Program-made: the position numbers and the translations under genes
Assembly: GCA_963668465.1 (NCBI GenBank)
Contig: OY764542.1
Location: 1,094,153-1,158,152, forward strand
Origin: Dehalococcoidia bacterium
GTDB taxonomy: Bacteria > Chloroflexota > Dehalococcoidia > Lucifugimonadales > Australimonadaceae
Length of the DNA: 64,000 nt
Reading direction: 5' to 3'
Notes under the pieces: generated by a model
The model's database searches: none
Seen by the model: the letters and a program-made list of their open reading frames with translations, nothing else
Told to the model about the DNA's origin: nothing
Shown here: piece by piece, positions 1,363 through 57,515 of the stretch
Position numbering within the stretch: the first letter of the stretch is position 1
Layout of the letters: the number at the start of each line of letters is the position of its first letter

Positions 1363-4300
1363 TTGCCCGCACTCGCGGTGCTTGTATCTGTGGCCTTTGG
1401 CTTGTGGCTGCTTCCCGTCGGGTTTCTCCATGCCCAGACGCCCGAGATCATCGAGTACGCGGAGCACACGCCGGTAGCCAGTCCGGTGGCGACGTTCACG
1501 GCGACGGACGACGAGGACGACAAGGCGGGGAAAGCGCTTACCTGGTCGGTTGAGGGCACCGACGCTGGGTATTTCGACATCTCTCAGAGAGGAGTCCTCA
1601 CCTTCAAGGAGTCTCCCGACTATGAGAATGCGAAGGGCAGAGGCTCTGGCGAGTCTGCGAATACGTACACCGTAGACGTGGTGGCTACCGACAGTGCTAG
1701 TGGTAAGGGTACCCATTCCGTCGTCGTGAAGGTCACGAACGAGGACGAGCCCGGGACGTTGACGCTGTCGAATCGCCAGCCGGTGGTGGGGGTGGCGCTC
1801 ACGGCGACGCTCACCGATGTTGACGGTGGGGTTTCAAATGAGCAATGGCAGTGGGCACGGAGCTCCAATCGGGGAGGCCCCTTCGTGACCATAGAGGCGA
1901 CCGAAACCAACGGTGCCGGGACGGTTGCGTATGTTCCCGATTCGACGGACACGGGGCGCTACCTGCGCGTGACAGTGACCTATACCGACGCCGAGGGCCC
2001 GGGAAAGCAGGAGTCCGTGGTCTCGGACAGAAGCGTGCTGGCACGCCGGGCCGCGAATGCGGCTCCTGTGATCATAGATAGTGATGGAAGTCCAATCACG
2101 GCTACCTCGATCGATAGGGATGTTGCGGAGAATTCGCCTGCGGGCACACCGGTGGGTGACTCCATCGGCGTCAGCAACCCCGAACGTGACGTGCTGACCT
2201 ATACGCTGAGCGGCGATGACGCCGGGAAGTTCACCATCGACTCAAGTGGTCAGATCCGGGTAGGTCCCGGCACGGAGCTGGACACCGAGGGAACAGCTAC
2301 CTTCAGCGTCACCGTTACGGTCTCGGATGGCAACCTGGCCGGTTTGGCAAACTTGGCGACCTACTCAGACTCCGTTGGTGTGGCTATCGGAGTGACGGAC
2401 GTTCCGGAGCCGCCCGAGTTGAGCGGGAAGACATCCGTTTCACACCCGGAGAACACCTCGATAGAGACTCCCGTGGCCGCGTACAAAGTGACCGATGATG
2501 AAGACGATTTTGCCGAAACAGCTGTTGGAGTGACGTTGTCGGGTGCAGACGCGAGTGCCTTCACGTTGACCGACAGCAGCTCAGCTGGTGGAACAGCCGA
2601 TGACGGCACGTGGGAGCTAGCCTTCAAGTCGATGCCTGATTTCGAGTCTCCGGTGGATGCGGGCAGGAACAACACGTACAACGTGACGGTGAGGGCGACT
2701 GACAGTGCTGGACGCACCGACGTTCTGAACATAGCGGTGGTGGTGACGAACGTGGACGAGGAGGGGACGGTGAGCCTGTCGACGCTGGCGCCGAAGGTAG
2801 GGGTTGAGCTGACGGCCACGCTCACGGGCGACCTGGATGGGAGGCCATCCCGTGTCACCTGGAAGTGGGAGAGGGCTGACAGCGGTGCGTTTGGCGATAG
2901 CGACAGCGTCACAGTCATCAGCGGGGCGACGTCGGCTTCCTACACTCCGGTTCACGCGGATGCGGGAAAGTACCTTCGGGCGACGGCGCTGTACGCGGAC
3001 CCCCAGGGGCCGGGCAAGAGTGCGGGTGTGGTTTCGGCGGGCGCTGTGGCGGCGTCGAACAAGCCGCCGTGGTTCGACGACCCTAGCACTGGTGATAAGG
3101 ACGAGAGCATCAAGGAGATAGCTCAGGAGGAAGGCGAGTTCCAGGCGGAAACCGATCTGGGAGATTCGGTCAGCGCCACCGATCCTGAGAATGCGCAACT
3201 GACGTACGAGTTGAGCGGTGATGCGGCCCTGTTCATTATCGACCGTTCGACGGGTCAGATAAAGGTGAGGGCGGGGACGACGCTGGACTACGAGACGAAG
3301 AGCAGCTACGTGGTGCGGGTGAAGGCGACGGACCCTGATGGAGCGAGCGCGACTGCCACGGTGACCATCAACATCACCGATGTCCCCGAACCCCCAGTGA
3401 TTTCCGGGACTGGTTCCTTTAGCTTCTTGGAGCACACGCCGATAAACCGTCCGGTGGCGACGTTCAGGGCGACGGACGATGAGGACGACAAGGCAAGGAA
3501 GGCACTGACTTGGTCGGTTGAGGGCACCGACGCTGGGTATTTCGTCATATCCCAGAGAGGAGTTCTCACCTTCAAGGAGTCCCCCGATTATGAGAATGCA
3601 AAGGGCGAAGGCTCTGACGAGTCTGCGAATACGTACGACGTAGACGTGGTGGCCACCGACAGTGCTAGTGGTGAGGGTACCCATTCCGTCGTCGTGAAGG
3701 TGACCAACGATGACGAGCCCGGGACGTTGACGCTGTCGAATCGCCAGCCGGTGGTGGGGGTTGGGCTCACGGCGACGCTCATCGACGTTGACGGTAGGAT
3801 TTCAAATCAGCAGTGGAAGTGGGCGTGGGGCACCAGCCGTGCCGGTCGCTTCACAGACATGGATTCAACCGATCTCCCCACCTACGCCCCCGTTGAGGTT
3901 GATGGACGGCGCTACCTGCGTGTGACGGTGACCTACACCGACGGTCAGGGATCCGGGAAGACGAAGTCGGCGGTTTCGGAGCGGCCGGTGCGGGCAGCCA
4001 AGGATTCGGATACCACCCCCGTATTTGTAGATGACAGAGGGACCGAGATCACTGATGGCTCAATCACTCGGGAAGTGCGAGAGAACTCGCGCGCGGGCAC
4101 GCTAGTGGGTGGGCGCGTCAGGGCCAGGGACCCTGAGGGAGACGTGCTGACCTTCGCGCTGGACGGCGATGACGCCGGGAAGTTCACCATCGACTCGAAC
4201 GGTCAGATCAAGGTGGGTCCCGGCACGGAGTTGGACGCCGAGGAAGACTCCCTCGATGTCACGGTCACGGTCACGGACGGGGTTAAGAATACTACTTCCA

Positions 4301-16215: not shown

Positions 16216-17645
16216 CGAGAGAATTGACCTTCATCTTCGGCCCGGGTCCGGAAGAGGTTTCTCCTCAAGAGGCAGCGAGAACGTCACTGAGACGCTTCGT
16301 TCGCAGTGAAGGCGAGCTGGGCGTGTATGAAGCCTCCAACAACCCCACTGGGCACGTACTTACGGCATGGGAAGCATATACTGCTTACGGTATTGAGATC
16401 TTGGAAGAGGCCGTTGAATATGGTTCTGCAATCTTAAGACAGACTAGGGACTCCACTAGCAAAGCGCTTAAGGACCGTAGAATAGCTCTCGGCCTGTCTT
16501 ACTCATCAGTTGGGCAGGCAGCAGATCTAGAGGCAGCAGAGATTGAAATTGCAGAATCGTCATCAGCGAAGATGTCTATAGCCGATCTCGAACGCTTGGC
16601 CTTCTTGCTGGGCTTGGATGAGCGGCTGCTGGCATTTGACAAGGAGGCGGGAGGAGATTCCAGTTTGGCGTACCGGCTGCGAACTCTCCAAACTGAAGAA
16701 ATCGACCCCGTTACTAAGTTGTCCGCTCGAACGGCGATTCGGTTTGCAGAGGCCGCATCAATCATCCGAGTACAACTTAGGATGCAAAAGTGGCTTGGCC
16801 TTCCAATGGAGAGCCACAAGGTTCAACCTGATTCCAACTACGGCTCAAGTTGGAGCCCAGCTTGGAAGGTGGGGTATGGCCTTGCAGAACGTGCCAGACA
16901 GGCCTTGAACCTTGATTACACACCAATCAACTCAATGCGTGAATTAGTTGAGAATCGATTAGGGATACCGGTCATTCAGGCAATACTGCCAGAGCGAATC
17001 GCAGGTGCAACTATCACGACGACAGACGAAGATGGTGTAGAAGCACGTGGCGTTATCCTGAATATGATTGGTCATAACGAAAACGTCTGGATACGTCGAG
17101 CAACGCTAGCCCATGAATTGGGCCACTTGCTCTATGACCCGCGTGGGAATCTGGAAAACGTAAGGGTTGACTCATATTGGGATAACCAAAGAGATGCTGA
17201 GACGGATGCATTAGATCCAGTGGAGCAGAGGGCCAACGCATTCGCTATCGCGTTTCTTGCTCCTAATGATGCAATCCGTACACTTGTGCCAGCTCCAGTA
17301 TCAGAACAGTCGGTGTCTGATGTAATGCACCTGTTTGGTATCAGCCTGACCGCAGCGCGATACCACATTGCTAACGTGCATTATCGCAATTATGATGTAC
17401 CATCTCCCGTGGGCGATGCTTCCCCTTCTGATGAGCAGAAGGCCGCGGAAAATTTTGCGGTAGACTTCTTTCCCCTGCAGAGCACTCCGGATCAACGCAG
17501 AGGCAGATTTGCAGGGTTGGTTGCAGCATGCTGCGAGCAGGGATTCATATCTGAGGACACTGCGTCCCTCTATTTGCAGTGTACTGTCGAAGACCTGAGA
17601 AGAAACTTGGGCACCCTACGAGAGCTCTTCGATATACACACTTAA
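16212..17645 (+). CDS. XRE-type HTH plus ImmA/IrrE-family (M78, HEXXH) metallopeptidase fusion protein
   Basis: HTH-like segment KALKDRRIALGLSYSSVGQAADLEAAEIEIAES. Zinc motif ATLAHELGHLLYD and downstream EQRANAFAIAFLAP, typical of ImmA/IrrE (COG2856). GGAGG lies upstream of the ATG. Confidence 0.75.
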   Translation: MTRELTFIFGPGPEEVSPQEAARTSLRRFVRSEGELGVYEASNNPTGHVLTAWEAYTAYGIEILEEAVEYGSAILRQTRDSTSKALKDRRIALGLSYSSVGQAADLEAAEIEIAESSSAKMSIADLERLAFLLGLDERLLAFDKEAGGDSSLAYRLRTLQTEEIDPVTKLSARTAIRFAEAASIIRVQLRMQKWLGLPMESHKVQPDSNYGSSWSPAWKVGYGLAERARQALNLDYTPINSMRELVENRLGIPVIQAILPERIAGATITTTDEDGVEARGVILNMIGHNENVWIRRATLAHELGHLLYDPRGNLENVRVDSYWDNQRDAETDALDPVEQRANAFAIAFLAPNDAIRTLVPAPVSEQSVSDVMHLFGISLTAARYHIANVHYRNYDVPSPVGDASPSDEQKAAENFAVDFFPLQSTPDQRRGRFAGLVAACCEQGFISEDTASLYLQCTVEDLRRNLGTLRELFDIHT

Positions 17646-17869
17646 GTCCATCAGAAGGCCGATTTTACTCCGCTATAGCACGAGAATTCCAGGAGTGTAC
17701 GCTGGGCTGATGTGCTCTCGCGCACTTCTGATTTCTCGCCCATCGTGGGAATCACAATTGATTCGACAGGCTCACGATGAGCGGGCACTCGAGAGGATGT
17801 TGCGCGCTAAAGCGCAGACTGCGACCCCGGCTTCACTCAACATGACAAGCGCTCCCCCACGCCTCCAGC

Positions 17870-17912
17870 CCGGTCCCTTCCCTCTTGATGGGGGAAGGTT
17901 AGGATGCGGGTG
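17870..17912 (-). repeat. REP-like 43-nt palindromic element, copy a
   Basis: Reverse complement cacccgcatcctaaccttcccccatcaagagggaagggaccgg. It shares the core ccttccccc-atcNa-gggggaagg with 24624-24666 and 57468-57510, and overlaps the ATG of the SDR gene. Confidence 0.8.
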
Positions 17913-18818
17913 AGCGCATACAATGCACCGGCTACGTGGGAGGTGCTGAACGTGGGCAAGCTGGATGGGCAGACGGTGATCGTGACGGGGGCGAGCCGGG
18001 GCATCGGGGCGGAGATCGCGCGGGTGCTGGCGGCGGAGGGCGGGCGCGTGGTGTGCGCGGCGCGCACGCTGCACGAGGGCGACCATCCGCTGGAAGGCTC
18101 GCTGGAGCACACGGTCGCGGGCATCCGCGACGCGGGGCACGAGGCGTCGGCGGTCGCGGTCAACATCTCGGAGGCGGAGGAGTGCGAGCGTCTCGTGCAG
18201 GAGGCGCGGTCGCTCTACGGGCCGGTCGACGTGCTGGTGAACAACGCGGCGCTCTCCTACTTCCTGCCGGTGACGGACTACGCGGTGAACCGGTGGATGC
18301 GCTCGTGGGCGGTGAACGTCCACGCGCCGTTCATCCTGAGCCAACTGGCGTTGCAGGACATGGTCCCGCGCCGGAGCGGGCGCATCGTCAACATCTCGTC
18401 GGTCGCGGCGATCGGGCCGGGGCATGGGCCGTACGATGGGGAGGGCGCGGAGGAGTTCCGGCTGAAGGGCGGCACGGGGTACGGCGCGCAGAAGGCGGCG
18501 TTGGAGCGCTTCTCGCAGGGGCTGGCGTCGGAGGTGTACGCGGACGGCGTCGGCGTCGCGGCGGTCGCGCCGTCGCTCATCGTGCCGACGCCGGGCACGG
18601 TGTTCCACCACCTCGTGACCGGCTACGACGACCCGCGCGGCGAGCACCCGAACGTCCTCGCGCAGGCCGTGTTGCTGCTGTCGACGGAGGCGCTCGACGC
18701 GGTGAGCGGCCGGGTCTGCTACAGCCAGCAGTTGCTGCGGGAATTCGGATGGATCGAGGGCGGCAGCGGCCCCGGCATCGACGTCGACTGGCCGGTGAGC
18801 GGGTTCACGCTGCGGTAG
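17904..18818 (+). CDS. Short-chain dehydrogenase/reductase family oxidoreductase
   Basis: TGASRGIG Rossmann motif, NNAA, and an SDR-type length of 304 aa. Confidence 0.8.
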   Translation: MRVSAYNAPATWEVLNVGKLDGQTVIVTGASRGIGAEIARVLAAEGGRVVCAARTLHEGDHPLEGSLEHTVAGIRDAGHEASAVAVNISEAEECERLVQEARSLYGPVDVLVNNAALSYFLPVTDYAVNRWMRSWAVNVHAPFILSQLALQDMVPRRSGRIVNISSVAAIGPGHGPYDGEGAEEFRLKGGTGYGAQKAALERFSQGLASEVYADGVGVAAVAPSLIVPTPGTVFHHLVTGYDDPRGEHPNVLAQAVLLLSTEALDAVSGRVCYSQQLLREFGWIEGGSGPGIDVDWPVSGFTLR

Positions 18819-23181: not shown

Positions 23182-23192
23182 GAGAGGAAGTG

Positions 23193-26100
23193 ATGGCATC
23201 CGAGGGGAAGGTCGACTCCAGCAGACTCCCCAGCGAGTCCGTGGGCGGAGAGCCCATCGCGGTGGTAGGGATGGCGTGCCGGTTCCCCAGCGCCACGGGG
23301 CTTCCGGCGTTCTGGCGTCAGTTGGAGGCCGGTGAGAGCGCGGTCATCGAGGGCGTTCCAGGTTCCGGCGTCGGGCGCGTGGGCTACCTCTTCCCGGACG
23401 CAGCGGTACAAGCCGAGGCGTGCCGTTTCGGGGCGTACATCGACGAGATCGACCAGTTCGACGCGGGGTTCTTCCGCATCTCCCCGGTGGAGGCGCAACT
23501 GCTGGACCCGCAGCAGCGGCTGATGCTGGAGACGAGCTGGCGAGCGCTCGAAGACGCGGGGATCGACCCGGACACGCTGAAGGGCAGCCGCACCGGGGTC
23601 TACGCGGGCATCAGCAACAACGAGTACCGGGGGCTGATCCTTGGCGTCAGCGACACCGCCGACCCCGCCACGAGCCTCTACACGGTCACCGGCACGTCGT
23701 TCAACACGGCCATCGGGCGCGTGGCGTTCGCACTGGGGCTGCAAGGGCCGGCGATAGCGGTGGACACGGCGTGCTCGTCGTCGCTCGTGGCGGTGCACCA
23801 GGCAATCGTCGGTTTGCAGCGCGGCGAGGCCGACCTTGCGCTCGCGGGAGGCGTGCACGCGATCCTGTCGGGGCGGTTGCTCGAGCTGCGAGCGAACGCC
23901 GGGATGCTGGCGCCTGACGGCCAATGTAAGACGTTCGACGCCGCAGCGAACGGGTACGTGCGGGGCGAGGGCTGCGGCCTCCTCGTGCTGAAGCGGCTGA
24001 GCGAGGCGGAGGCGGACGGCGACCGGATCTGGGGCGTGATACGCGGCTCGGCGCTGAACCAGGACGGGGCGAGCCAGGGGCTGACGGTGCCGAGCGAGAG
24101 CGCCCAGGAGCAGGTGATCGAGGCGGCGTTGCTCCGGGCAGGGCTGGAGCCGTGGGAAGTGGACTACGTGGAGGCGCACGGGACGGGGACGCCGGTGGGC
24201 GACCCGATCGAGATGCAGGCCACGGGAACGGTGTACAGCAGGGGCCGCGAGGCAGACCGTCCGCTCCTCGTCGGGTCGGTGAAGACGAACATCGGCCACC
24301 TGGAGTCCGCGGCGGGCGCCGCCAGCCTCATCAAGGTGATGCTGGCGATGAAGCACCGGGTCATCCCGAAGCACCTGAACTTCCGCAACCCGAACCCGGA
24401 GATCGACTGGGAGCGGATGACGGTGCGGGTGGCGTCGGAGACGATGGAGTGGCCGGTCGTTCCCAACCGTCCACCCCGAGCAGGAGTGAGTGGATTCGGA
24501 TGGTCGGGCACGAACGCGCACGTCATCGTGGAGGGGTACGGGGAGCCTATAGCCGCTGACGCGGGGAACGGTCTGCCGGCGGGGCCTTCGGTGGCTATCG
24601 CGGTTGCGCAGGCGGAGGCTGGACACCCCCATCCTAGCCTTCCCCCATCGAGGGGGAAGGGACCGGAAGTCTCGACAGCGGAGGAATGGGAGTTGGCGGC
24701 GCGGGGGACGCGACTGCTGCCGCTGTCGGGGAAGTCGAGGCAGGCGCTCAGGGAGCAGGCGGAACGGTATATCGCGTGGCTCGACGAGCATCCCGAGCAG
24801 TTCCCACACGACGGCGCGGCCAGCGGCGAAGCGCTGTCAGACATGGCGTGGACAGCGAGCGTCGGGCGGAGTCACTTCCCGCACCGCTCGGGCGTTGTCT
24901 TTCGCAATGCGGCGTCGCTGCGCGAGCGGCTGCGGGAGGTCGTGGAGGGGGACGACACGCCCGACGGGCCAGAGCCGAAGCCTGCGTCCAAGGTGGCGTT
25001 CGTCTACACCGGCCAGGGCAGCCAGTGGGTGGGGATGGGAGAGGCGCTGTACGAGAGTGAGCCGGTGTTCCGCGCGGTGCTCGACCGGTGCGAGCGATGG
25101 GTGCAGGAGCACCGGGGAGCGTCGCTGCTGGACGTGCTGTTCGGACGGCCCGGCGCGACGGGCAGCCTCGACGACCCGATGTGGACGCAGCCCGCGACCT
25201 ACGCGCTCCAGTGCGGGCTGACTGCGCTCTGGTCGAGCCTGGGCGTGCATCCGGACGTCGTGATGGGCCATAGCCTCGGTGAGATTGCGGCTTCGCAGAC
25301 TGCAGGCGTGTTCAGCCTCGAGGACGGGCTACGGTTCGCGGCGACGCGCGGCGAGCTGATGGCGTCGCTGCCGGTGTCGGGCGCGATGGCGGCGGTGTTC
25401 GCGCCTGAGGCCCACGTGGGGGCTGCTCTAGAGGAGTGGAACGCTGCGACAGAGGGGCTGGGGTTGAGCGTCGCGGCAGACAACGGAGCGCACCAGGTGG
25501 TGAGCGGCGAGGCGGGGGAGGTAGAGCAGATCGTGCAGCGGTTCGAGGCAGAGGGGCTTCGCGTGAACCGGCTGCGGAGCAGCCCCGGCTACCACAGCGT
25601 GCTCGTGGAACCGGCGCTGGACGATCTGGCTGCTGTGGTTGGCGACCTTGCGGTCGCGCCGCCGTCCATCCCACTGGTGAGCAACGTGACTGGCCGGTTG
25701 ATCGCGCAGGGCGGCGTGCAGGACCCGGCGTACTGGCGGCGGCACGCGCGGCAGCCGGTGGCGTTCCGGGGGTGCGTCGAGACGCTGGCCGAGATGGGCG
25801 TCGACGCAGTCGTGGAACTGGGGCCGCACACGGTGCTGGGGCCGATGGCGAGCCTCGCGTGGCCGGAGACGAGCGCCGCCCCGGCGGTGCTATCGAGCCT
25901 GCACCGACCGCCGCGGGACCCGGCAGAGCCCATCGTGGACTCGACGGGTGGGTTCATCGAAGGAGTCGCCGCGGCGTACGAGGCGGACATCCCGTTCTCG
26001 TTCGCAGGGCTGTTCGCCGGGGAATCGCGGCGGCGGGTCGCGCTGCCGGGGTATCCATTCCAGCGGCAGTCGTACTGGGTCGACGAGGTGCGGCGGCGGC

Positions 26101-29100
26101 GCGCGGCCGCGGGGCATCCGTTGCTGGGGACCCGGCACGAGTCACCTCGCGGCGAGACGTCGTTCGAGTCGGAGCTATTCCCGGCGGACCCGGTCTGGCT
26201 AAACGATCACCGGGTGTTCGGGCGGGTAATCGCACCGGGCGCGCTGTACGGGGCGATGGCGGCGTCGGCGCTGGCGAACGCACAAGGGTCGGTGGCAGTG
26301 GAGGAGATGCAATTGCTCACCCCGCTGGTCCTGCCCGAACAGGACGGAGAGCAGGGTTCAAGGCAGGCGGGGCGGAGCGTGCAGATGGTGCTGGACGCTC
26401 CGGAAGGGACGTCGCCCCGGGGGTTCGAGATATTCAGCCGTGGCGATGGGGAAGAAGCGTGGACGCTGCACGCTCAGGGACGAGTGTCGTCGGCTGCGGA
26501 ACGGCAGGCACGCGAGCGGATCGACGTCGACCAACTCAAGGCCGGTCTGTCCGCAGTGGAACTGCCGGCGTTTTACCGGGCGCGCGCCGAAACGAACATC
26601 AACCTCGGTCCGTCGTTCCGAACGCTCCAGGGGCTCTGGCGCGGAGAGGGCAAGGCGATCGGCGAGATAGTGCTGCCCGAAGCGGTGGACGGCGCAGGGC
26701 TGCCCGTGCACCCGGTGCTGCTGGACGGCTGCTTCCAGGTGATGGCGGCGGCGCGCAACCGGGAGGGGAGCGAAGACGGAGCGACCTACCTGCCCTTCGG
26801 ATGGGAGCGGCTCTGGCTGGCGGAGCGATTGCCGGAACGGGTGGTCTGTCACGCCCGCATGCGGGAGAGCGTCCGCGAAGCGGGTAGCGATGGTGAAGCC
26901 GCCGAGCCGAGGGAGGTATTCGCTGGCGACCTGCGGTTCTACTCCGTGGACGGGGTCGAACTCGGCGGACTGAGCGGGTACACGGTGAAGCGGGCGACGC
27001 GAGCAGCCGTGCTGTCGGGGACCGAGGGAGTGAACGACCTTCTCTACGAGGTCATCTGGCGCGACAAGCCGCTTCCGCAAGGGATGCCATCCGCCGACTT
27101 CCTTCCGAGGCCGTCTGCCATCGCGGCGGGTTCCAATCCATTCTCAGGGTATCTGGTCGCGGAGGGTGTCGGAGCCGACGAACGAACAGCGCTGCTGACG
27201 GACCTCGAGCGGCTGTCGTGGCGGTACGCGCTCGCGGCGCTCGAACAGTTGGGCTGGAAGCGGCAGGCCGGAGAAGCGGTTGAGCCCGAACCCCTGCGGG
27301 AGCGGTTCGGGGTTTCGGCAGAGCACACACGACTGTTCCGTCGGCTGTTCGAACTGCAGGCGAGGGCCGGCGTCGTGGAGGCAGCAGGCGATGGCTTCGT
27401 CGTGCTGGCCGGGGGCGACGACCCACTCCCGGAAGCGGTGCCGAGCGATCCTGAGGCGTTCGCGGACGGGATGGCGTCGCGCTACGCGCATGGTTCGGTT
27501 GAAGTGGGACTGTTCCGGCGGTCCGCCGCAGCACTGGCGGAGGTGCTCGTCGGGAAGGCGGACCCGCTGACGCTGCTATTCAGCAGCGGGGAGCCGACCG
27601 CAGCCGACCTGTACATGCGGGCGCCGGTGGCGCGAGCGGCGAACCGGATGCTGGGCGACGCCGTCGCTGCGCTGCTGGAAGCGTTCCCGGATGGGCGTCG
27701 GTTGCGCGTGTTGGAGGTCGGCGCGGGCACGGGTTCGGCGACGGAACTGGTGTTGCCGGAGCTTCCAGCAGGCCGGTTCGACTACGTCTACACGGACATA
27801 TCGGCGGGCTTCTTCGCGGAGGCGGAGGGACGCTTCGGCGGGAGTGAAGCGTCGATCGAATACCGGGTGCTGGACGTCGAGAAGGACCCGGTGGCGCAGG
27901 GGTTCGACTCGCACGGGTACGACCTCGTCATCGCATCGAACGTGTTGCACGCGACACGCTACCTGGAGGAGACGCTCGCACACTGCCGTGACCTCCTCGC
28001 GCCGTCGGGGCAGTTGCTGGCGCTCGAGAACCTCCGCGGCCAAGGGTGGCTCGACCTCACATTCGGGCAGCTGGACGGCTGGTGGCGGTTCGCCGACTCC
28101 TACCGTCCGCATCATGCGCTGGCGAGCCCCGCGGTGTGGCGGCAGGCGCTCGGCGACGCGGGGTTCGTGGAGGCGGAGGTGCTGGGGGTGGAGGCGTCCG
28201 CATCGGCGGAGCCGGACAGGGGCGTCATCATGGCGCAGGGGCCGTCGGAAGTCATGGAACCGGCAGGCGTCTGGGTGCTCGCGGGCGACAAGGGCGGCGT
28301 GGGGGAGCAACTCGCGACGGAATTAGCGGGGCGCAACCAGACCGTGGTGCTGGCGGGCGCGGGGGTGGAAGGGGAGGACCGCGAGTCGTGGCGTTCGTTG
28401 CTGGAAGGGCTGCCTGTGGACCTGCCATTGAACGGCGTCGTCCATCTCATGGCGTTGGACGGGCATGGCCCGGATGCCACCACCGATGAGTTCGCACAAG
28501 ATGTAAGACATGCGGCGGCGAGCGCGCTTGCGCTCGTGCAGGGCATGACCGACGCCGACGTGACTCCCGTCAAGGGATTGTGGTTGGTCACGCGCGGCGG
28601 ACAGGTGCTGGAGAAGGAGCACGGCGGAGAGATCGCCGGCGCGACGCTGTGGGGGTTCGGGAAGGTGGTGGCGCGGGAGGCGGCGCACCTGCAACCGAGG
28701 ATGATCGACCTCGATCCGGGAGCGCCAGCGTCGATGTCGGATCTCGTCAACGAACTGCTGTACCCGGACTCGGAGACGCATATCGCCCATCGCCGGGGGT
28801 ACCGTCAGGTAGCAAGACTGGTTCGGGCCGGAAGCGCAACCGAGCGGTTGGCGCTGTCAGAAGACTCGGCCTGGCTGCTGGAGCCGGACGCAGGCGGTGC
28901 GCTCGAAGGGCTGCAGATAGGCCCCTTCCCTGCCCGTCCGCTGGAGCCGCGAGACGTCCGGATCGCGGTCGAGGCTGCGGGGCTCAACTTCTGGGACCTG
29001 TTCCGCGCGCTCGGCCTCATCGACGAAGGGTTGCTGGGCGGCGAGTTCTGTGGGCGGGTGCTCGGAGTGGGTAGCGATGTGACCAGCGTCTCGGTGGGAG

Positions 29101-32100
29101 AGCGGGTTGTTGGGCTGGCGTTCGGGACGTTCGGGTCCGAGGCCATCACGCGGGAGGAGATGGTTGCGCCTGCGCCGCCAGGGTTCCCGGTAGCGGACCT
29201 CGCCACGATCCCGACGGCGTTCGTGTCGGCGGCGCTCTCGTTCGACCTTTCGGGGCTGAACCCCGGCGACCGGGTGCTCATCCATTCCGGCGCGGGAGGC
29301 GTGGGGCTGGCCGCCATACAACTGGCGCAGGCGGCGGGGGCCGAGGTGTTCGCGACCGCGAGCGCGCCGAAGCAGGCGTATCTCCGCGAGTTGGGCGTAC
29401 AGCACGTATTCGACAGCCGCTCGACGAAGTTCGGGCAGGAGATACTCGACGCTACGGGCGGCGAGGGCGTTCACGTCGTGGTGAACAGCCTGACGGGAGA
29501 GGGCTTCATCGATGCGAGCTTGTCGTGTCTCGCGCAGGGCGGGCGGTTCATCGAACTGGCCCGGTTGGACATCCTGTCCGAGGAGGAGATGGCGGCGGTA
29601 CGGCCTGACGTCTCCTACTCGATCCTGATGCTGGACGTGCTGAAGGAGCATGACCCTGCGACGCCCGGGAACGCCCTGAGGCGCGTCATGCGGCAGCTGG
29701 CAGCGGGCGAGGTGACGCCGCTCGTCCATACCCGGTGGTCGATGACCGAAACCGGGCCTGCGATGAAGTTCATGCGGGCGGCACGGCACATCGGAAAGAT
29801 CGTCCTGGCGAACTCGCCCGTCGAGAGCGGGAGGCTGCGTGAGGACAGGACGTACCTCGTGACCGGCGGACTCGGTGGCATCGGGTGTGCGCTGGCGGAG
29901 TGGCTGGCAGAGCGGGGCGCAGGCGCTATCGTGCTGAATGGGCGTCGTCCTCCAGACCCCGAGGTGGCCGAGGCCATCGATGCCTTGCGCGAGCGCGGTG
30001 TGACCGTGCAGGTGGAGACCGCGGACGTGACGGACGCGGCGGCGGTCGACGGGATGCTGGAGCGCATCGATGCGACGCTGCCGCCGCTGGCGGGCGTCAT
30101 CCACAGCGTGGGTGTGCTGTCGGACGCGGCGCTGACGAACCAGAGCTGGGAGCGATTCGAGGACGTGCTTTGGCCAAAGGTGCTGGGGGCCTGGCACTTG
30201 CACCGCGCGACCATCGGACGCGACCTCGACATGTTCGTTCTGTTCTCGAGCGTGGCGGGGGTGCTGGGCAACCCGGGGCAGGCGAACCACGCCGCGGCCA
30301 ACGCATTCCTCGACCAGCTCGCCGGTCACCGGCGGGCGCTGGGGCTTCCCGGCCAGACCATCGCGTGGGGCGCGTGGTCGGGGCTGGGCGAGGCGGAGGA
30401 ACAGCGAGAGCGCATCGCGAGGCAGTTGGAGGCAGCGGGAACGGGCTGGATCACGCCGGAGCAGGGGCTCAAGGCGTTCGACGAGGTGCTGCGGCAGGAC
30501 ATGACCACCGGGATGGTGGCGTCGGTGGACTGGCAGGTCTTTTCGGAGGGGCACGAGCAACGTCCGCCATTGTTGAAGGAGCTGCTGGCCACGACCGAGG
30601 ACAGCGCCGCCGAGGCGGCTACGTCGCCGGGCGACATGCTGTCCGGCCTCTTGGACGCGTCGCTGGCGGAGCGTGAGCAGATGCTGGCATCGTTCCTGCA
30701 GCGGGAACTGCAGGCGGTGATGCGTCTGCCGACTCCTCCGGCCGCATCGGTGGAGTTCTCCGAGCTGGGGATGGACTCGCTGATGGCGGTGGAGTTACGC
30801 AACCGTGTGAACCGCGCATTCGCCGGAGAGTACGTGGCGCCGAACACTGTGGTGTTCGATTACCCGAGCGTCACGGCGCTCGCGCGTCACCTGGCCGGAG
30901 AGCTCGGTGAGCCTGCCGAAGCGGCGCTCCCGGAGCGGCGCGCGCCGGAAGTGCAAGTGCGGTCCGTCGTGGGAGACGGCATCGCCATCGTTGGGATGGC
31001 GTGCCGGTTCCCCGGCGCGGAGGACCTCTCGGCTTTCTGGCGCCAATTGGAAGCAGGCGAGAGCGCAATAGCAGACGGGCGCGAGGGGTCCGGCGACTGG
31101 AATGGCGCCGTAGGAGACCCTGCGGTGACAGACGCTTCCTACGTGCGGGGAGGGTTCGTCAAGGACATCGATCTGTTCGACTCCCGGTTCTTCCGTATCG
31201 CCCCGATCGAGGCCCGGATGATGGACCCGCAGCAGCGGATGATGCTGGAGACGAGCTGGCAGGCGCTGGAGGATGCGGGCATAGACCCTGACCGGTTGCG
31301 GGGCAGCCGCACGGGGGTCTACGCGGGCGTCGGGGGCAGCGAATACCGGGACCTCATCCAGACCAGCGGCAGGTTCAACAGCTACCTCGGCACCACAGGG
31401 AGCGTGACCGTTGGCCGCGTTGCGTTCGCGCTGGGCCTGGAGGGGCCCGCGATGCCGATGGACATGGCGTGCGCGTCGTCGCTGGCCGCCGTGCACCAGG
31501 CGGTTGCCGGCCTGCAGCGGGGCGAGGTGGACCTCGCGCTTGCGGGCGGCGTGAACGCTGTGCTGTCCGCGTCGGTCACGAGGTTCATGGCGGACCTCGG
31601 CATGTTGTCGGCCAACGGCGAGTGCAGGACGTTCGACGCAGCCGCGGATGGTTACGTGCGGGGCGAGGGCTGCGGTATCGTGGTGCTGAAGCGCCTTAGC
31701 GACGCGGAGGCAGACGGCGACCGGATATGGGGCGTCATCCGCGGCTCCGCGGTGAACCAGAACGGCGCGAGCATGGGGCTGACCGTCCCCAAGGGGCCGG
31801 CGCAGGAACGCGTTATCGAGGAAGCACTCGCACGGGCGGGCGTCGAACCCTCGGAAGTGGACTACCTGGAAGCGCACGGGGTCGGGTCGAACCTGGGCGA
31901 CCCCGTCGAGGTGCGCGCGGCGGCGGCGGTGTACGGCAGGGGGCGCGAAGCAGACCGCCCGCTCCTCGTGGGGTCCGTGAAGACGAACATCGGCCACCTG
32001 GAGTCCGCAGCGGGCATCGCCGCCTTCATCAAGGCTGTGCTCGCGATGGAGCACGGCGTAATCCCGAAGCACCTGCACCTCGACAACCCGAACCCCAACC

Positions 32101-33266
32101 TGGATTGGGAGCAACTCCCCGTACAGGTGACCACGGCCATGACCGACTGGCCGCCCGTCTCCGGCCGTCCGCCACGAGCAGGTGTGAGCGCGTTCGGACT
32201 CTCGGGCACCAACTCGCACGTCATAGTCGAGGGCTACGGAGAGCCGGACGCTGGCGGTGGGAACGGCTGGCCTGCGGGGCCTGCGGTACCGATCGCCGTT
32301 CCTGCGCCGGAGTCCGCAATCGATGGAACGCTCACGGTGCGAGGAACCCGGTTGCTGCCCCTCTCAGGGAAGACGGACCGCGCCCTGCGAGAGCTTGCCG
32401 GGCGCTATCTGTCGTGGCTGGACGAACATCCTGAGCTGTTCCCGCCCGGGTGTACCGGGAGCGATGAAGCGCTGTCTGACTTGACCTGGACGGCGAGCGT
32501 TGGACGCAGCCACTTCCCGTACCGCGCGGGCGTGGTGTTCCGGGATGTGGCATCGCTGCGCGCCCGGCTGCGGGCCGTGAGCGAAGAGGACGAGATGCCT
32601 GACGGGCAGGAGCCGCGAGTCGCGTCGAGGGTCGCTTTCGTCTACAACGGCGAAATTGGCCAGTGGGCAGAGGTGGGACAGGCGCTATACGAGAGCGAAC
32701 CGGTGTTCCGTGCGGTGCTGGACCGGTGCGATGCAGCGCTACGTGAGGTGCGCGGCGCTTCGCTGCTGGACGTGATGTTCGGTCGGTCTGGCGCTGCGGG
32801 TGGCCTCGACGATCCGGCATGGACGCAGCCTGCGATCTACGCCTTGGAATGCGCGCTGACGGCCCTCTGGTCAAGCGTGGGTGTGCGTCCGGACGTGGTT
32901 GTGGGCCACGACCGAGGCGAGACAGCAGCGTCGCAGGCGGCAGGCGTATTCAGCCTCGAGGATGGCCTGCGATTTGCAGCAACGCGCGGCGAGTTGATGG
33001 CATCAGGTGCGGAGACCAGCCTCGGAGCGGCCCTCGACGGAGTGGTTGTTGCTTCGCCGTCCATACCTCTGGTTCGTAGCCTCACGGAAGAGCCTGGGAT
33101 CGACTTCTCGGTCGAGTTGAACCCGAACGGCGGGTTCCTGGACGCGGTAGCCGAGGCATACGAGGCCGGCCTCCCGCTCTCGTTCCCGGGGCTGTTCGCT
33201 GGGGAGTCCAGGCGGCGTGTCTCACTACCGGGGTATCCGTTCCAGCGCAGACGTCACTGGGTCTAG
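23193..33266 (+). CDS. Type I polyketide synthase: KS-AT-DH-cMT-ER-KR-ACP-KS-AT(degenerate), with no terminal ACP or TE
   Basis: KS1 DTACSSS (about 23770) with EAHGTGT and KTNIGH. AT1 GHSLGE (25266-25283). DH HPLLG..P and LLDGCFQ. Methyltransferase LEVGAGTGS. MDR-type ER HSGAGGVGLAAIQ. KR TGGLGGIG. ACP GMDSL (Ser codon 30777-30779). KS2 DMACASS (Cys codon 31470-31472). AT2 GHDRGE (32904-32921) with large internal deletions. The ORF ends at YPFQRRRHWV. Confidence 0.9.
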   Translation: MASEGKVDSSRLPSESVGGEPIAVVGMACRFPSATGLPAFWRQLEAGESAVIEGVPGSGVGRVGYLFPDAAVQAEACRFGAYIDEIDQFDAGFFRISPVEAQLLDPQQRLMLETSWRALEDAGIDPDTLKGSRTGVYAGISNNEYRGLILGVSDTADPATSLYTVTGTSFNTAIGRVAFALGLQGPAIAVDTACSSSLVAVHQAIVGLQRGEADLALAGGVHAILSGRLLELRANAGMLAPDGQCKTFDAAANGYVRGEGCGLLVLKRLSEAEADGDRIWGVIRGSALNQDGASQGLTVPSESAQEQVIEAALLRAGLEPWEVDYVEAHGTGTPVGDPIEMQATGTVYSRGREADRPLLVGSVKTNIGHLESAAGAASLIKVMLAMKHRVIPKHLNFRNPNPEIDWERMTVRVASETMEWPVVPNRPPRAGVSGFGWSGTNAHVIVEGYGEPIAADAGNGLPAGPSVAIAVAQAEAGHPHPSLPPSRGKGPEVSTAEEWELAARGTRLLPLSGKSRQALREQAERYIAWLDEHPEQFPHDGAASGEALSDMAWTASVGRSHFPHRSGVVFRNAASLRERLREVVEGDDTPDGPEPKPASKVAFVYTGQGSQWVGMGEALYESEPVFRAVLDRCERWVQEHRGASLLDVLFGRPGATGSLDDPMWTQPATYALQCGLTALWSSLGVHPDVVMGHSLGEIAASQTAGVFSLEDGLRFAATRGELMASLPVSGAMAAVFAPEAHVGAALEEWNAATEGLGLSVAADNGAHQVVSGEAGEVEQIVQRFEAEGLRVNRLRSSPGYHSVLVEPALDDLAAVVGDLAVAPPSIPLVSNVTGRLIAQGGVQDPAYWRRHARQPVAFRGCVETLAEMGVDAVVELGPHTVLGPMASLAWPETSAAPAVLSSLHRPPRDPAEPIVDSTGGFIEGVAAAYEADIPFSFAGLFAGESRRRVALPGYPFQRQSYWVDEVRRRRAAAGHPLLGTRHESPRGETSFESELFPADPVWLNDHRVFGRVIAPGALYGAMAASALANAQGSVAVEEMQLLTPLVLPEQDGEQGSRQAGRSVQMVLDAPEGTSPRGFEIFSRGDGEEAWTLHAQGRVSSAAERQARERIDVDQLKAGLSAVELPAFYRARAETNINLGPSFRTLQGLWRGEGKAIGEIVLPEAVDGAGLPVHPVLLDGCFQVMAAARNREGSEDGATYLPFGWERLWLAERLPERVVCHARMRESVREAGSDGEAAEPREVFAGDLRFYSVDGVELGGLSGYTVKRATRAAVLSGTEGVNDLLYEVIWRDKPLPQGMPSADFLPRPSAIAAGSNPFSGYLVAEGVGADERTALLTDLERLSWRYALAALEQLGWKRQAGEAVEPEPLRERFGVSAEHTRLFRRLFELQARAGVVEAAGDGFVVLAGGDDPLPEAVPSDPEAFADGMASRYAHGSVEVGLFRRSAAALAEVLVGKADPLTLLFSSGEPTAADLYMRAPVARAANRMLGDAVAALLEAFPDGRRLRVLEVGAGTGSATELVLPELPAGRFDYVYTDISAGFFAEAEGRFGGSEASIEYRVLDVEKDPVAQGFDSHGYDLVIASNVLHATRYLEETLAHCRDLLAPSGQLLALENLRGQGWLDLTFGQLDGWWRFADSYRPHHALASPAVWRQALGDAGFVEAEVLGVEASASAEPDRGVIMAQGPSEVMEPAGVWVLAGDKGGVGEQLATELAGRNQTVVLAGAGVEGEDRESWRSLLEGLPVDLPLNGVVHLMALDGHGPDATTDEFAQDVRHAAASALALVQGMTDADVTPVKGLWLVTRGGQVLEKEHGGEIAGATLWGFGKVVAREAAHLQPRMIDLDPGAPASMSDLVNELLYPDSETHIAHRRGYRQVARLVRAGSATERLALSEDSAWLLEPDAGGALEGLQIGPFPARPLEPRDVRIAVEAAGLNFWDLFRALGLIDEGLLGGEFCGRVLGVGSDVTSVSVGERVVGLAFGTFGSEAITREEMVAPAPPGFPVADLATIPTAFVSAALSFDLSGLNPGDRVLIHSGAGGVGLAAIQLAQAAGAEVFATASAPKQAYLRELGVQHVFDSRSTKFGQEILDATGGEGVHVVVNSLTGEGFIDASLSCLAQGGRFIELARLDILSEEEMAAVRPDVSYSILMLDVLKEHDPATPGNALRRVMRQLAAGEVTPLVHTRWSMTETGPAMKFMRAARHIGKIVLANSPVESGRLREDRTYLVTGGLGGIGCALAEWLAERGAGAIVLNGRRPPDPEVAEAIDALRERGVTVQVETADVTDAAAVDGMLERIDATLPPLAGVIHSVGVLSDAALTNQSWERFEDVLWPKVLGAWHLHRATIGRDLDMFVLFSSVAGVLGNPGQANHAAANAFLDQLAGHRRALGLPGQTIAWGAWSGLGEAEEQRERIARQLEAAGTGWITPEQGLKAFDEVLRQDMTTGMVASVDWQVFSEGHEQRPPLLKELLATTEDSAAEAATSPGDMLSGLLDASLAEREQMLASFLQRELQAVMRLPTPPAASVEFSELGMDSLMAVELRNRVNRAFAGEYVAPNTVVFDYPSVTALARHLAGELGEPAEAALPERRAPEVQVRSVVGDGIAIVGMACRFPGAEDLSAFWRQLEAGESAIADGREGSGDWNGAVGDPAVTDASYVRGGFVKDIDLFDSRFFRIAPIEARMMDPQQRMMLETSWQALEDAGIDPDRLRGSRTGVYAGVGGSEYRDLIQTSGRFNSYLGTTGSVTVGRVAFALGLEGPAMPMDMACASSLAAVHQAVAGLQRGEVDLALAGGVNAVLSASVTRFMADLGMLSANGECRTFDAAADGYVRGEGCGIVVLKRLSDAEADGDRIWGVIRGSAVNQNGASMGLTVPKGPAQERVIEEALARAGVEPSEVDYLEAHGVGSNLGDPVEVRAAAAVYGRGREADRPLLVGSVKTNIGHLESAAGIAAFIKAVLAMEHGVIPKHLHLDNPNPNLDWEQLPVQVTTAMTDWPPVSGRPPRAGVSAFGLSGTNSHVIVEGYGEPDAGGGNGWPAGPAVPIAVPAPESAIDGTLTVRGTRLLPLSGKTDRALRELAGRYLSWLDEHPELFPPGCTGSDEALSDLTWTASVGRSHFPYRAGVVFRDVASLRARLRAVSEEDEMPDGQEPRVASRVAFVYNGEIGQWAEVGQALYESEPVFRAVLDRCDAALREVRGASLLDVMFGRSGAAGGLDDPAWTQPAIYALECALTALWSSVGVRPDVVVGHDRGETAASQAAGVFSLEDGLRFAATRGELMASGAETSLGAALDGVVVASPSIPLVRSLTEEPGIDFSVELNPNGGFLDAVAEAYEAGLPLSFPGLFAGESRRRVSLPGYPFQRRRHWV
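24624..24666 (+). repeat. REP-like 43-nt palindromic element, copy b, inside the PKS coding sequence (KS1-AT1 linker)
   Basis: cacccccatcctagccttcccccatcgagggggaagggaccgg; translated in-frame as HPHPSLPPSRGKGP. The paralogous KS2-AT2 linker lacks this stretch. Confidence 0.8.
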
Positions 33267-57413: not shown

Positions 57414-57467
57414 CGCACACTCCAAGGACTTGCGTAACCCTGCCGCACGCCCCTCGCCCCACCAAGC

Positions 57468-57510
57468 CATCCCCATCCTAACCTTCCCCCATCAAGGGGG
57501 AAGGGACCCT
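57468..57510 (+). repeat. REP-like 43-nt palindromic element, copy c (intergenic)
   Basis: catccccatcctaaccttcccccatcaagggggaagggaccct, lying between convergent genes. Confidence 0.8.
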
Positions 57511-57515
57511 CGGCC

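Follow-up and report, generated by a model that had tools for sequence, protein, structure and literature searches.

The stretch analysed here, called the window, is the 64,000-nt segment C1:1094153-1158152 of genome G000, a single contig of 3,235,595 bp with 65.5% G+C that belongs to a sponge-associated SAR202/Dehalococcoidia genus. The window contains a gene for a type I polyketide synthase (PKS), read as one stop-free open reading frame (ORF). Within the linker between the first KS and the first AT domain of this protein lies a copy of a short hairpin-containing repeat, which we call family A. The repeat recurs at many other places in the genome, and in the synthase it is translated in frame as part of the protein.

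The repeat and its host gene

By Pfam, the domains of the synthase run KS-AT-DH-cMT-ER-KR-ACP-KS-AT, the last of these being degenerate. The DTACSSS motif of KS1 and the GHSLGE motif of AT1 are intact, as are DPQQR and HGTGT, whereas AT2 is truncated and reads GHDRGE (32904-32921) where AT1 has GHSLGE. We found 550 relatives of the protein; the best 80 are nearly all from metagenome-assembled genomes (MAGs) of many phyla, many of them with sponge-symbiont names, and the closest among these 80 are from SAR202/Dehalococcoidia. At its C-terminus (33230-33266) the protein of G000, like that of clade III species, reads GYPFQRRRHWV, and the proteins of G016, G008 and clade II species have about 20 more residues (...RLIPG...).

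The insert follows the last KS strand (GTNAHVIVE, 440-448) and precedes RLLPLSGK (508-515), which opens the KS-AT linker domain (Pfam match from residue 509). The initial annotation had placed the copy in frame, and it is: position 24624 is a codon start of the ORF 23190-33266, whose translation around this point reads ...AEAGHPHPSLPPSRGKGPEVSTAEE... The inserted codons (24621-24674) encode GHPHPSLPPSRGKGPEVS, PKS residues 478-495. From GTNAHV to LLPLSGK the segment spans 76 aa, as compared with 43-96 aa, and mostly 58-64 aa, among the 79 orthologues in which it could be delimited. The corresponding KS2-AT2 linker of the same protein is, as had been proposed, shorter (57 versus 77 residues) and free of the element. 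An AlphaFold2 model built from 52 sequences gives residues 452-503 as coil with a predicted local distance difference test score (pLDDT) below 50, flanked by strands at 442-448 and 508-514; we take this as supporting evidence only, because the model is poor in parts of the KS domain as well.

The family-A consensus, TCACCCCCATCCTAA-CCTTCCCCC-ATCRA-GGGGGAAGG-GAYCAGGCA, is 47 nt long by column conservation over 92 genomic copies, with a 5´ edge that is sharp and a 3´ edge that is softer in the conservation profile, and it measures 51-53 nt when filled sites are compared with empty ones. The 43-nt element first described is a real repeat, but the unit is slightly longer. Its palindrome is internal (positions 16-38) and forms a perfect 9-bp stem with a 5-nt loop, for which the predicted energy is -17.7 kcal/mol as RNA (z -3.4) and -10.1 kcal/mol as DNA (z -3.9). 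The suggestion that the element adds a stable hairpin to the mRNA holds for the hairpin itself but not for its surroundings, since the 87-nt mRNA context of the PKS copy is no more structured than shuffled sequences (z -0.67). Of the unit's three sense frames, two are free of stop codons, and the PKS copy is read in one of these two. Terminal inverted repeats were not found, the consensus ends (TCACCCCCATC... and ...GGGAYCAGGCA) not being reverse complements, and a search of Rfam gave no family matching the unit.

The 23-nt core, CCTTCCCCCATCNAGGGGGAAGG, matches the window at the three sites that the initial annotation had named: without mismatch on the plus strand at 24638-24660 and 57482-57504, and with one mismatch on the minus strand at 17876-17898. 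Shuffled sequence gives 0.00 matches by chance. Against the family profile (nhmmer), the PKS copy scores 55.4 bits (E 4.9e-18). Across the genome, with at most three mismatches allowed in the core, we counted 92 family-A copies (58 plus-strand, 34 minus-strand), and the core is perfect in 56 of them. Most lie in the approximately 13% of the genome that is non-coding: by our own gene calls, which are crude (2892 genes, 86.7% coding), 70 of the 92 are intergenic and a further 15 overlap gene ends only. This agrees with the initial view of a dispersed, mostly intergenic repeat. The intergenic copies are spread over convergent (20), divergent (17) and tandem (33) contexts, an even spread that indicates no preference for 3´ ends. 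Intrinsic termination was considered as a general role and rejected, as no T-run follows the hairpin and the contexts are evenly spread.

Table 1. Features of the synthase locus and of other repeat-bearing loci (window positions, or contig C1 positions where so marked)
Feature	Position	Strand	Remarks
Host gene, type I PKS	23190..33266	+	3358 aa, stop-free ORF, Pfam domains
KS1-AT1 variable linker	24507..24737	+	GTNAHVIVE...RLLPLSGK, 77 residues (440-516)
54-nt (18-codon) insertion	24620..24673	+	relative to element-free orthologues; DNA alignment with L001, L002 and L003, and genus alignment
Family-A unit in PKS	24623..24669	+	ACACCCCCATCCTAG-CCTTCCCCC-ATCGA-GGGGGAAGG-GACCGGAAG; consensus matched over full length
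Hairpin core in PKS	24638..24660	+	9-bp stem, 5-nt loop
KS2-AT2 linker, same protein	32205..32375	+	GTNSHVIVE...RLLPLSGK, 57 residues (3006-3062), without element
Intergenic family-A copy	57467..57513	+	orthologous copy in sister genome G003/G008
Family-A copy, one core mismatch	17867..17913	-	antisense 5´ tail holds ATG 17904 of SDR-like ORF
NAD-dependent DNA ligase, LigA	C1:833577-835733	+	in-frame sense family-B unit AHPHPNPLPSRERGW; outside window
Prophage terminase large subunit	C1:1638657-1640219	-	phrog_2, E 8e-36; outside window
Isoleucyl-tRNA synthetase, IleRS	C1:1898631-1900868	+	in-frame antisense family-B unit SPSPSMGEGRGEGG; outside window

Carriers, empty sites and other translated copies

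The orthologue comparison that reaches outside the genus covered the best 80 of the 550 relatives. Among these the peptide is present in L001 only (SAR202 bin16, 94% amino acid identity); it was not found in L003 (92%), in L002 (84%) or in any other of the linkers examined, the more distant orthologues so examined making up 76 of the 80 loci. In the DNA alignment, the window PKS and L001 are both 54 nt longer than L002, and the flanking coding sequence is continuous on both sides of the insertion. Counted with at most two mismatches, family A has 55 copies in the L001 genome, 22 in the L002 genome and 58 in the L003 genome, so the element-free PKS genes of the latter two coexist with the family; no copy was found in two unrelated genomes that have the PKS.

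Of the 22 species genomes of the genus, 16 have the PKS, as judged by a protein search. Five of these carry the insert at the identical site and in the same orientation and frame (G000; G016, which is the L001 genome; G025; G010; and G019), and ten species of the genus do not. That the repeat inserted into a tolerant linker, as first proposed, is supported by its absence from these ten species and from all of the distant orthologues examined. The five carriers were assembled separately, several of them as single contigs, and their inserts are matched by the family model from end to end (E 1e-17 to 1e-19); the linkers of non-carriers give no hit (best E 1.4). That the peptide is a chance coding motif, or that the repeat marks an assembly mis-join, can be given practically no weight: the low-complexity look of the peptide speaks for this and nothing more, and against it stand the zero matches expected by chance, the full-length, 55-bit match to the family model, the recurrence of the insertion in five separate assemblies and the unbroken coding sequence to either side.

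The surroundings of the insert have been remodelled. In G010 and G019, 24 nt adjoining the element are deleted upstream, and in G025 and G019 a 15-nt deletion adjoins it downstream, while the 13-codon core of the insert is kept in all five carriers. The left junction is common to G000, G016 and G025. A 3´ extension outside the consensus, GTCTCGAC, is present in G000, G016 and G010 and absent from both the family consensus and the empty sites, which argues for a common origin of the insertion. The insertion is old, to judge from its sharing by five species, and would predate their speciation; the orthologue alignment to which the initial annotation looked for a date thus places it as not recent. 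Searched for in public genomes and metagenomes, a 34-mer spanning the junction was found only in the L001 record and in its metagenome twin, which is identical and not independent. We also considered whether the "alpha-type" linkers of G008, G022, G023 and G013 could be decayed remnants of the element, and rejected this: the family model finds nothing in them (best E 1.4), and a likeness of peptides by eye is not evidence.

While holding the insert, the synthase has been under purifying selection, as indicated by the comparison of two carriers, G000 and L001, over the first 5.7 kb of the gene (dN 0.038, dS 0.30, dN/dS 0.12). In 12 further species the frame is uninterrupted over approximately 3300-3450 aa. 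We therefore consider it very improbable that the PKS is decaying or non-functional and tolerates the insertion for that reason. The degenerate second AT, truncated and with GHDRGE in place of the active motif of AT1, might be read in this way, but its architecture is conserved across species, the DTACSSS of KS1 and the GHSLGE of AT1 are intact, and the open frames and a dN/dS of 0.12-0.13 are not those of a gene in decay.

Elsewhere in the genome, copies of the family have come or gone since related genomes separated. When the 58 copies of G003 were mapped onto G000, 23 proved to be shared in place, including the window copy at 57482, 10 were split, and 25 lay in regions too rearranged to score. 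For three G003 copies G000 has a clean empty site, with inserts of 53 nt, about 51 nt and, the element being counted with its flanks, 85 nt. Junction ambiguities at these three pairs of empty and filled sites are 2 nt (AG), 0 nt and 4 nt (AGCG, at both ends of the 85-nt insert), and three of four empty sites start with AG(C/G)G. Among 41 relatives, the copy number of family A ranges from 0 in four genomes of the same genus (G007, G009, G012 and G014) to 159 in G026, with 92 in G010; other genera have 0-9 copies, and G040, of another family in the same order, has 91. This patchy distribution suggests horizontal spread or repeated expansion and loss.

A second family, B (TCACCCTCACCCTAA-CCCTCTCCC-loop-GGGAGAGGG-GAYCAGRC), has at least 26-50 copies. 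Its tails are those of family A, and its stem (CCCTCTCCC/GGGAGAGGG) differs by two compensatory pairs, which shows the hairpin to be relevant for the family's propagation. All 13 distinct pairs of neighbouring units no more than 300 nt apart are direct, and none is inverted. A frequent doublet consists of an A unit followed 44-79 nt on by a B unit, for example at C1:683815/683859, 690097/690164 and 2121821/2121891. Longer arrays also occur: at C1:658281-658600 three or four family-A units follow one another in tandem every 105 nt, with another repeat, cccgagagatttctcggctccgctcggaatgaca, interleaved among them, and G003 has an array with a 74-nt period at 2793297-2793467. As a separate observation, the cumulative GC skew of the genome has its maximum near 0.4 Mb and its minimum near 1.9 Mb, and the orientation of family A splits 37:12 where the skew is positive and 21:22 in the remaining half. 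In all, 59 of the 92 copies have their C-rich strand leading, as far as the leading strand can be inferred. This hint of strand-asymmetric insertion was set aside as too weak to use, the bias being limited to a single replichore and the positions of origin and terminus being approximate.

The PKS is not the only gene that carries a translated copy. Genic copies were assessed by a test that separates sense frames from antisense shadow frames, in which both flanks had to show a GC1 above GC2 and a high GC3; it left in-frame units in four genes: the PKS, where the unit is of family A and in sense orientation, and the genes for the terminase large subunit of a prophage, LigA and IleRS. Of seven copies placed inside genes by the crude calls, most proved on translation to be antisense shadow ORFs or start-codon mis-calls. 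In the terminase, an antisense family-A unit (GVVPSPSMGEGKDGGD), followed by a segment apparently derived from family B, lies in frame between the two halves of the protein. In an alignment with E. coli LigA (4glx), the LigA insert falls exactly on a gap of 14 residues, just before EVRGEV and between conserved strands; across the genus (loci L162-L183) it is present in seven species and absent from 12. The LigA gene of G016 has an additional local duplication at the insert site. At the IleRS site (loci L184-L208), 11 species have no insert and nine others have varied extra sequence, mostly visibly repeat-derived and in some cases made up of several units, such as PLSLQGERARERVPGG, or VVPAQAGTSP plus SPSRGEGWGEGE. 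This site looks like an insertion hot spot. Judging from these predicted proteins, translated repeats are a recurring feature of the lineage, beyond the PKS, and the initial opinion that tolerated in-frame insertions in a megasynthase are uncommon needs correction in that such insertions are not rare in this lineage, given LigA, IleRS and the terminase.

Origin and persistence of the insertion

We think it very likely, from the sequence comparisons above, that the PKS copy is a tolerated insertion of selfish DNA, namely of a lineage-specific, hairpin-containing dispersed repeat that the synthase carries as translated sequence. Such elements would land in many places of the genome, and those surviving within genes would be only the insertions that keep the frame, bring in no stop codon and fall in a tolerant surface loop or linker. 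The Pro/Gly-rich peptide, HPHPxLPPSRGKG, would then be a passive extension of a flexible linker.

Four sets of results weigh against this reading. The first is the genealogy of the carriers. On the full-length PKS tree (3201 codons), G016 and G008, the L003 genome, group together to the exclusion of G000 (bootstrap 100), and a second clade (bootstrap 100) comprises G025, G010, G019, G022 and G023; a shorter tree of 648 codons was unresolved. Monophyly of the carriers is rejected on the full-length tree (delta lnL 1070, AU p 6.6e-7), so a single insertion calls for no fewer than three subsequent losses or recombination events (in G008, G022 and G023). G000, G016 and G008 are almost equidistant, and their informative sites form a mosaic (61/61/81). 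We consider the patchy presence of the insert best explained by one ancient insertion, followed in some lineages by loss or replacement of the linker through deletion or homologous recombination. A possibility is also that the linker segment itself was moved by homologous recombination, or that a hot spot received independent hits.

The last of these, in which a site-selective element would have hit the linker several times over, seems to us unlikely. It would account directly for the polyphyly of the carriers on the PKS tree and for the differences among PKS copies at positions that are polymorphic in the family, and the different inserts of different species at the IleRS site show that hot spots exist; the AG(C/G)G start of three of the four empty sites fits a preference of this kind. 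Repeated hits would not, however, be expected to agree in frame and orientation in five of five carriers, nor to share the left junction of G000, G016 and G025 or the GTCTCGAC extension, which joins G000 and G016, of clade I, to G010, of clade II. In addition, the mosaic support among the window PKS, L001 and L003 (61/61/81) points to recombination.

The second point against a tolerated insertion concerns the rate at which the element has diverged. Among the five carriers, the element core has a third-position diversity of 0.081, as compared with a gene mean of 0.245, at the 2.25th percentile of 13-codon windows. So low a value is not predicted for a purely passive passenger. It could result from constraint on the hairpin, from ectopic gene conversion by the approximately 90 copies in the genome or from a younger age. 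Three of the five positions that vary among PKS copies (TAG/TAA/TGA, and A/G in the loop) are the most polymorphic positions of the family, and the stem is perfect in four of the five carriers and has one C-to-T change in the fifth.

These observations bear on whether the hairpin or the peptide has been exapted, that is, functions in the PKS and is kept by selection, for example as a translational pause between KS and AT, as a site of mRNA processing or stability, or as a docking or spacer segment. In favor are a 13-codon core that is nearly invariant in five species despite the 24-nt and 15-nt deletions in the linker around it, a synonymous diversity that ranks the core among the lowest 2.25% of the gene's windows, and the near-perfect stem. 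Ten species of the same genus and all of the distant orthologues examined nevertheless work without the insert, comparable inserts are found in unrelated proteins, and the 87-nt mRNA context is not unusually structured. The variable positions, moreover, match those that are polymorphic in the family, so that gene conversion or neutral sites would fit equally well. We consider exaptation improbable, and more so than repeated insertion.

The third point is that searches for Y1/RAYT, TnpB and DDE enzymes tied no transposase to the element. The initial annotation had suggested a search for a RAYT (REP-associated tyrosine transposase; REP, repetitive extragenic palindromic element) or IS200-type transposase; PF01797 gave 0 matches in G000. 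Neither Y1/RAYT (PF01797) nor TnpB was found in G000, while control genomes were matched, and Y1 (PF01797) was likewise not found in G002 or G003. One RAYT-like ORF is present in G016 (L119:3194-3793, minus strand, contig C67), with a score of 66.8 bits to NF047646, below the cut-off of 80, and a Gly-rich interruption. No copy of family A or B lies within about 3 kb of it, it is missing from the syntenic site in G000, and tblastn found nothing credible elsewhere in that genome. The DDE_Tnp_1 matches in G000 are three fragments, two without a family-A or family-B copy within 3 kb; the third has two family-A copies nearby, which do not bound it as matching ends would. A parent insertion sequence (IS) with matching ends was not found in a search that covered DDE_Tnp_1 and did not extend to other transposase families. 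The fourth and last point is that the intergenic and genic shares of the census depend on crude gene calls.

Compensatory changes in the stem, together with the strictly direct arrangement of neighbouring units, would point to recognition of the hairpin, as DNA or RNA, in the manner of HUH/RAYT-type systems, a gene for which was not found in G000. A bolder reading is that the repeats are more than passive debris and belong to a mobile system so far undescribed, guided by the hairpin and without a recognizable transposase in the genome. It would return time and again to certain sites, among them loops of essential proteins, the IleRS site having different repeat families in different species, and the hairpin would be actively maintained within coding sequence by selection or gene conversion. 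We hold this to be doubtful. If true, such a system would keep producing variation in the protein loops of sponge symbionts.

Known repeat systems and gene context

A tolerated, translated repeat has its closest counterpart in the Rickettsia palindromic elements (RPEs; Ogata et al. 2000). As portrayed in the passages that PMC10969869 devotes to them, RPEs, too, are dispersed palindromic repeats; a substantial minority of their copies lie in frame in unrelated genes, including essential ones, and are translated as an extra peptide, at positions compatible with the fold, in a host-associated bacterium. By analogy with that portrayal, the phenomenon is functionally like that of the RPEs (PMC10969869), in what would be a new, unrelated and much shorter family and in a new phylum. 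The same passages put the length of RPEs at roughly 100-150 bp and state that in some families nearly half of the copies are genic; here, in contrast, the unit measures 47-54 nt and has one 9-bp hairpin, and the genic copies number about four out of roughly 120-140. A sequence relationship is not apparent, Rfam having given no match, and the host belongs to a sponge-associated SAR202/Dehalococcoidia genus and is not an alphaproteobacterium. Translated palindromic repeats are a textbook feature of Rickettsia and are thought to be rare elsewhere, and here a much smaller, apparently unrelated element family behaves in this way in a sponge-symbiotic genus of Chloroflexota. It is present in a 3358-aa PKS and in two essential enzymes and has persisted through speciation.

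The initial annotation called the element a mobile REP/MITE-like unit (MITE, miniature inverted-repeat transposable element). Its clean empty sites and REP-like shape agree with this, but a RAYT, terminal inverted repeats and inverted doublets are all lacking, so we describe it as REP-like in shape and not as a demonstrated member of either class. Families A and B resemble REPs and their REPIN-RAYT systems in being short imperfect palindromes, rich in G+C and asymmetric in their tails, that number in the tens to hundreds and lie for the most part outside genes, often at gene ends. In both cases, sister families differ by compensatory stem changes. They differ from REPs/REPINs in that no RAYT was found in G000 or G003, no doublet is inverted and the 5´ end has no GTAG-type motif. 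REPs are, in addition, classically excluded from coding sequence. The family thus offers a tractable case in which to study how REP-like elements spread without a RAYT. With MITEs such as Correia, ERIC and Chunjie it shares small size, non-autonomy and presence/absence polymorphism, and occasional in-frame fusions of MITEs with host ORFs have been described (PMC10969869). Unlike MITEs, however, the unit has no terminal inverted repeats, its palindrome is internal, and it is far shorter than is typical; junction ambiguities at the three empty sites are only 0-4 nt, and no parent IS was found among the DDE_Tnp_1 matches.

We take the host synthase to be of the "Sup" kind of sponge-symbiont PKS. 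Sup, a single-module PKS/FAS of sponge symbionts, is said to have been described by Fieseler et al. in 2007. Sup enzymes have a C-methyltransferase (C-MT) domain and intact DPQQR and HGTGT motifs. The synthase described here resembles the Sup/Swf group as a single-module reducing type I PKS with a C-MT that occurs across many phyla of sponge-symbiont MAGs. It has an extra C-terminal KS-AT(degenerate) didomain. SwfA lacks the MT domain and has a changed HGTGT motif (PMC3908369), and the host PKS differs from it on both counts. Carriers and non-carriers of the insert together form a natural experiment on where the linkers of a megasynthase tolerate insertions, which may be useful for PKS engineering.

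Outside coding sequence, the repeats appear at the ends of predicted genes. By the crude calls, the TAA in the sense strand of the unit ends four predicted genes and the TGA in its antisense strand ends six, while an antisense ATG, in GGAAGGTTAGGATGG, starts six. One of these six is the SDR-like ORF at 17904-18818, whose start codon had been noted to overlap the repeat; the predicted ATG (17904) indeed lies within the copy at 17867-17913, in its antisense 5´ tail, TTAGGATGCGGGTGA. At 17943 there is an in-frame GTG that the sister-genome orthologue has as well, and homology with that genome begins only at 17906. These cases are a caution for the annotation of symbiont MAGs, in which repeats can supply predicted start and stop codons as well as Pro/Gly-rich segments of "low complexity". 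Read in antisense, the unit (GGGGGAAGGTTAGGATGGGGGTGA) contains a Shine-Dalgarno-like run and an ATG, as seen in the 17867-17913 copy and in five others. Upstream of the SDR-like gene, window positions 17600-17900 cannot be aligned with G003, which has other repeat families in their place. Intergenic turnover in the genus appears to proceed mainly through these repeats.

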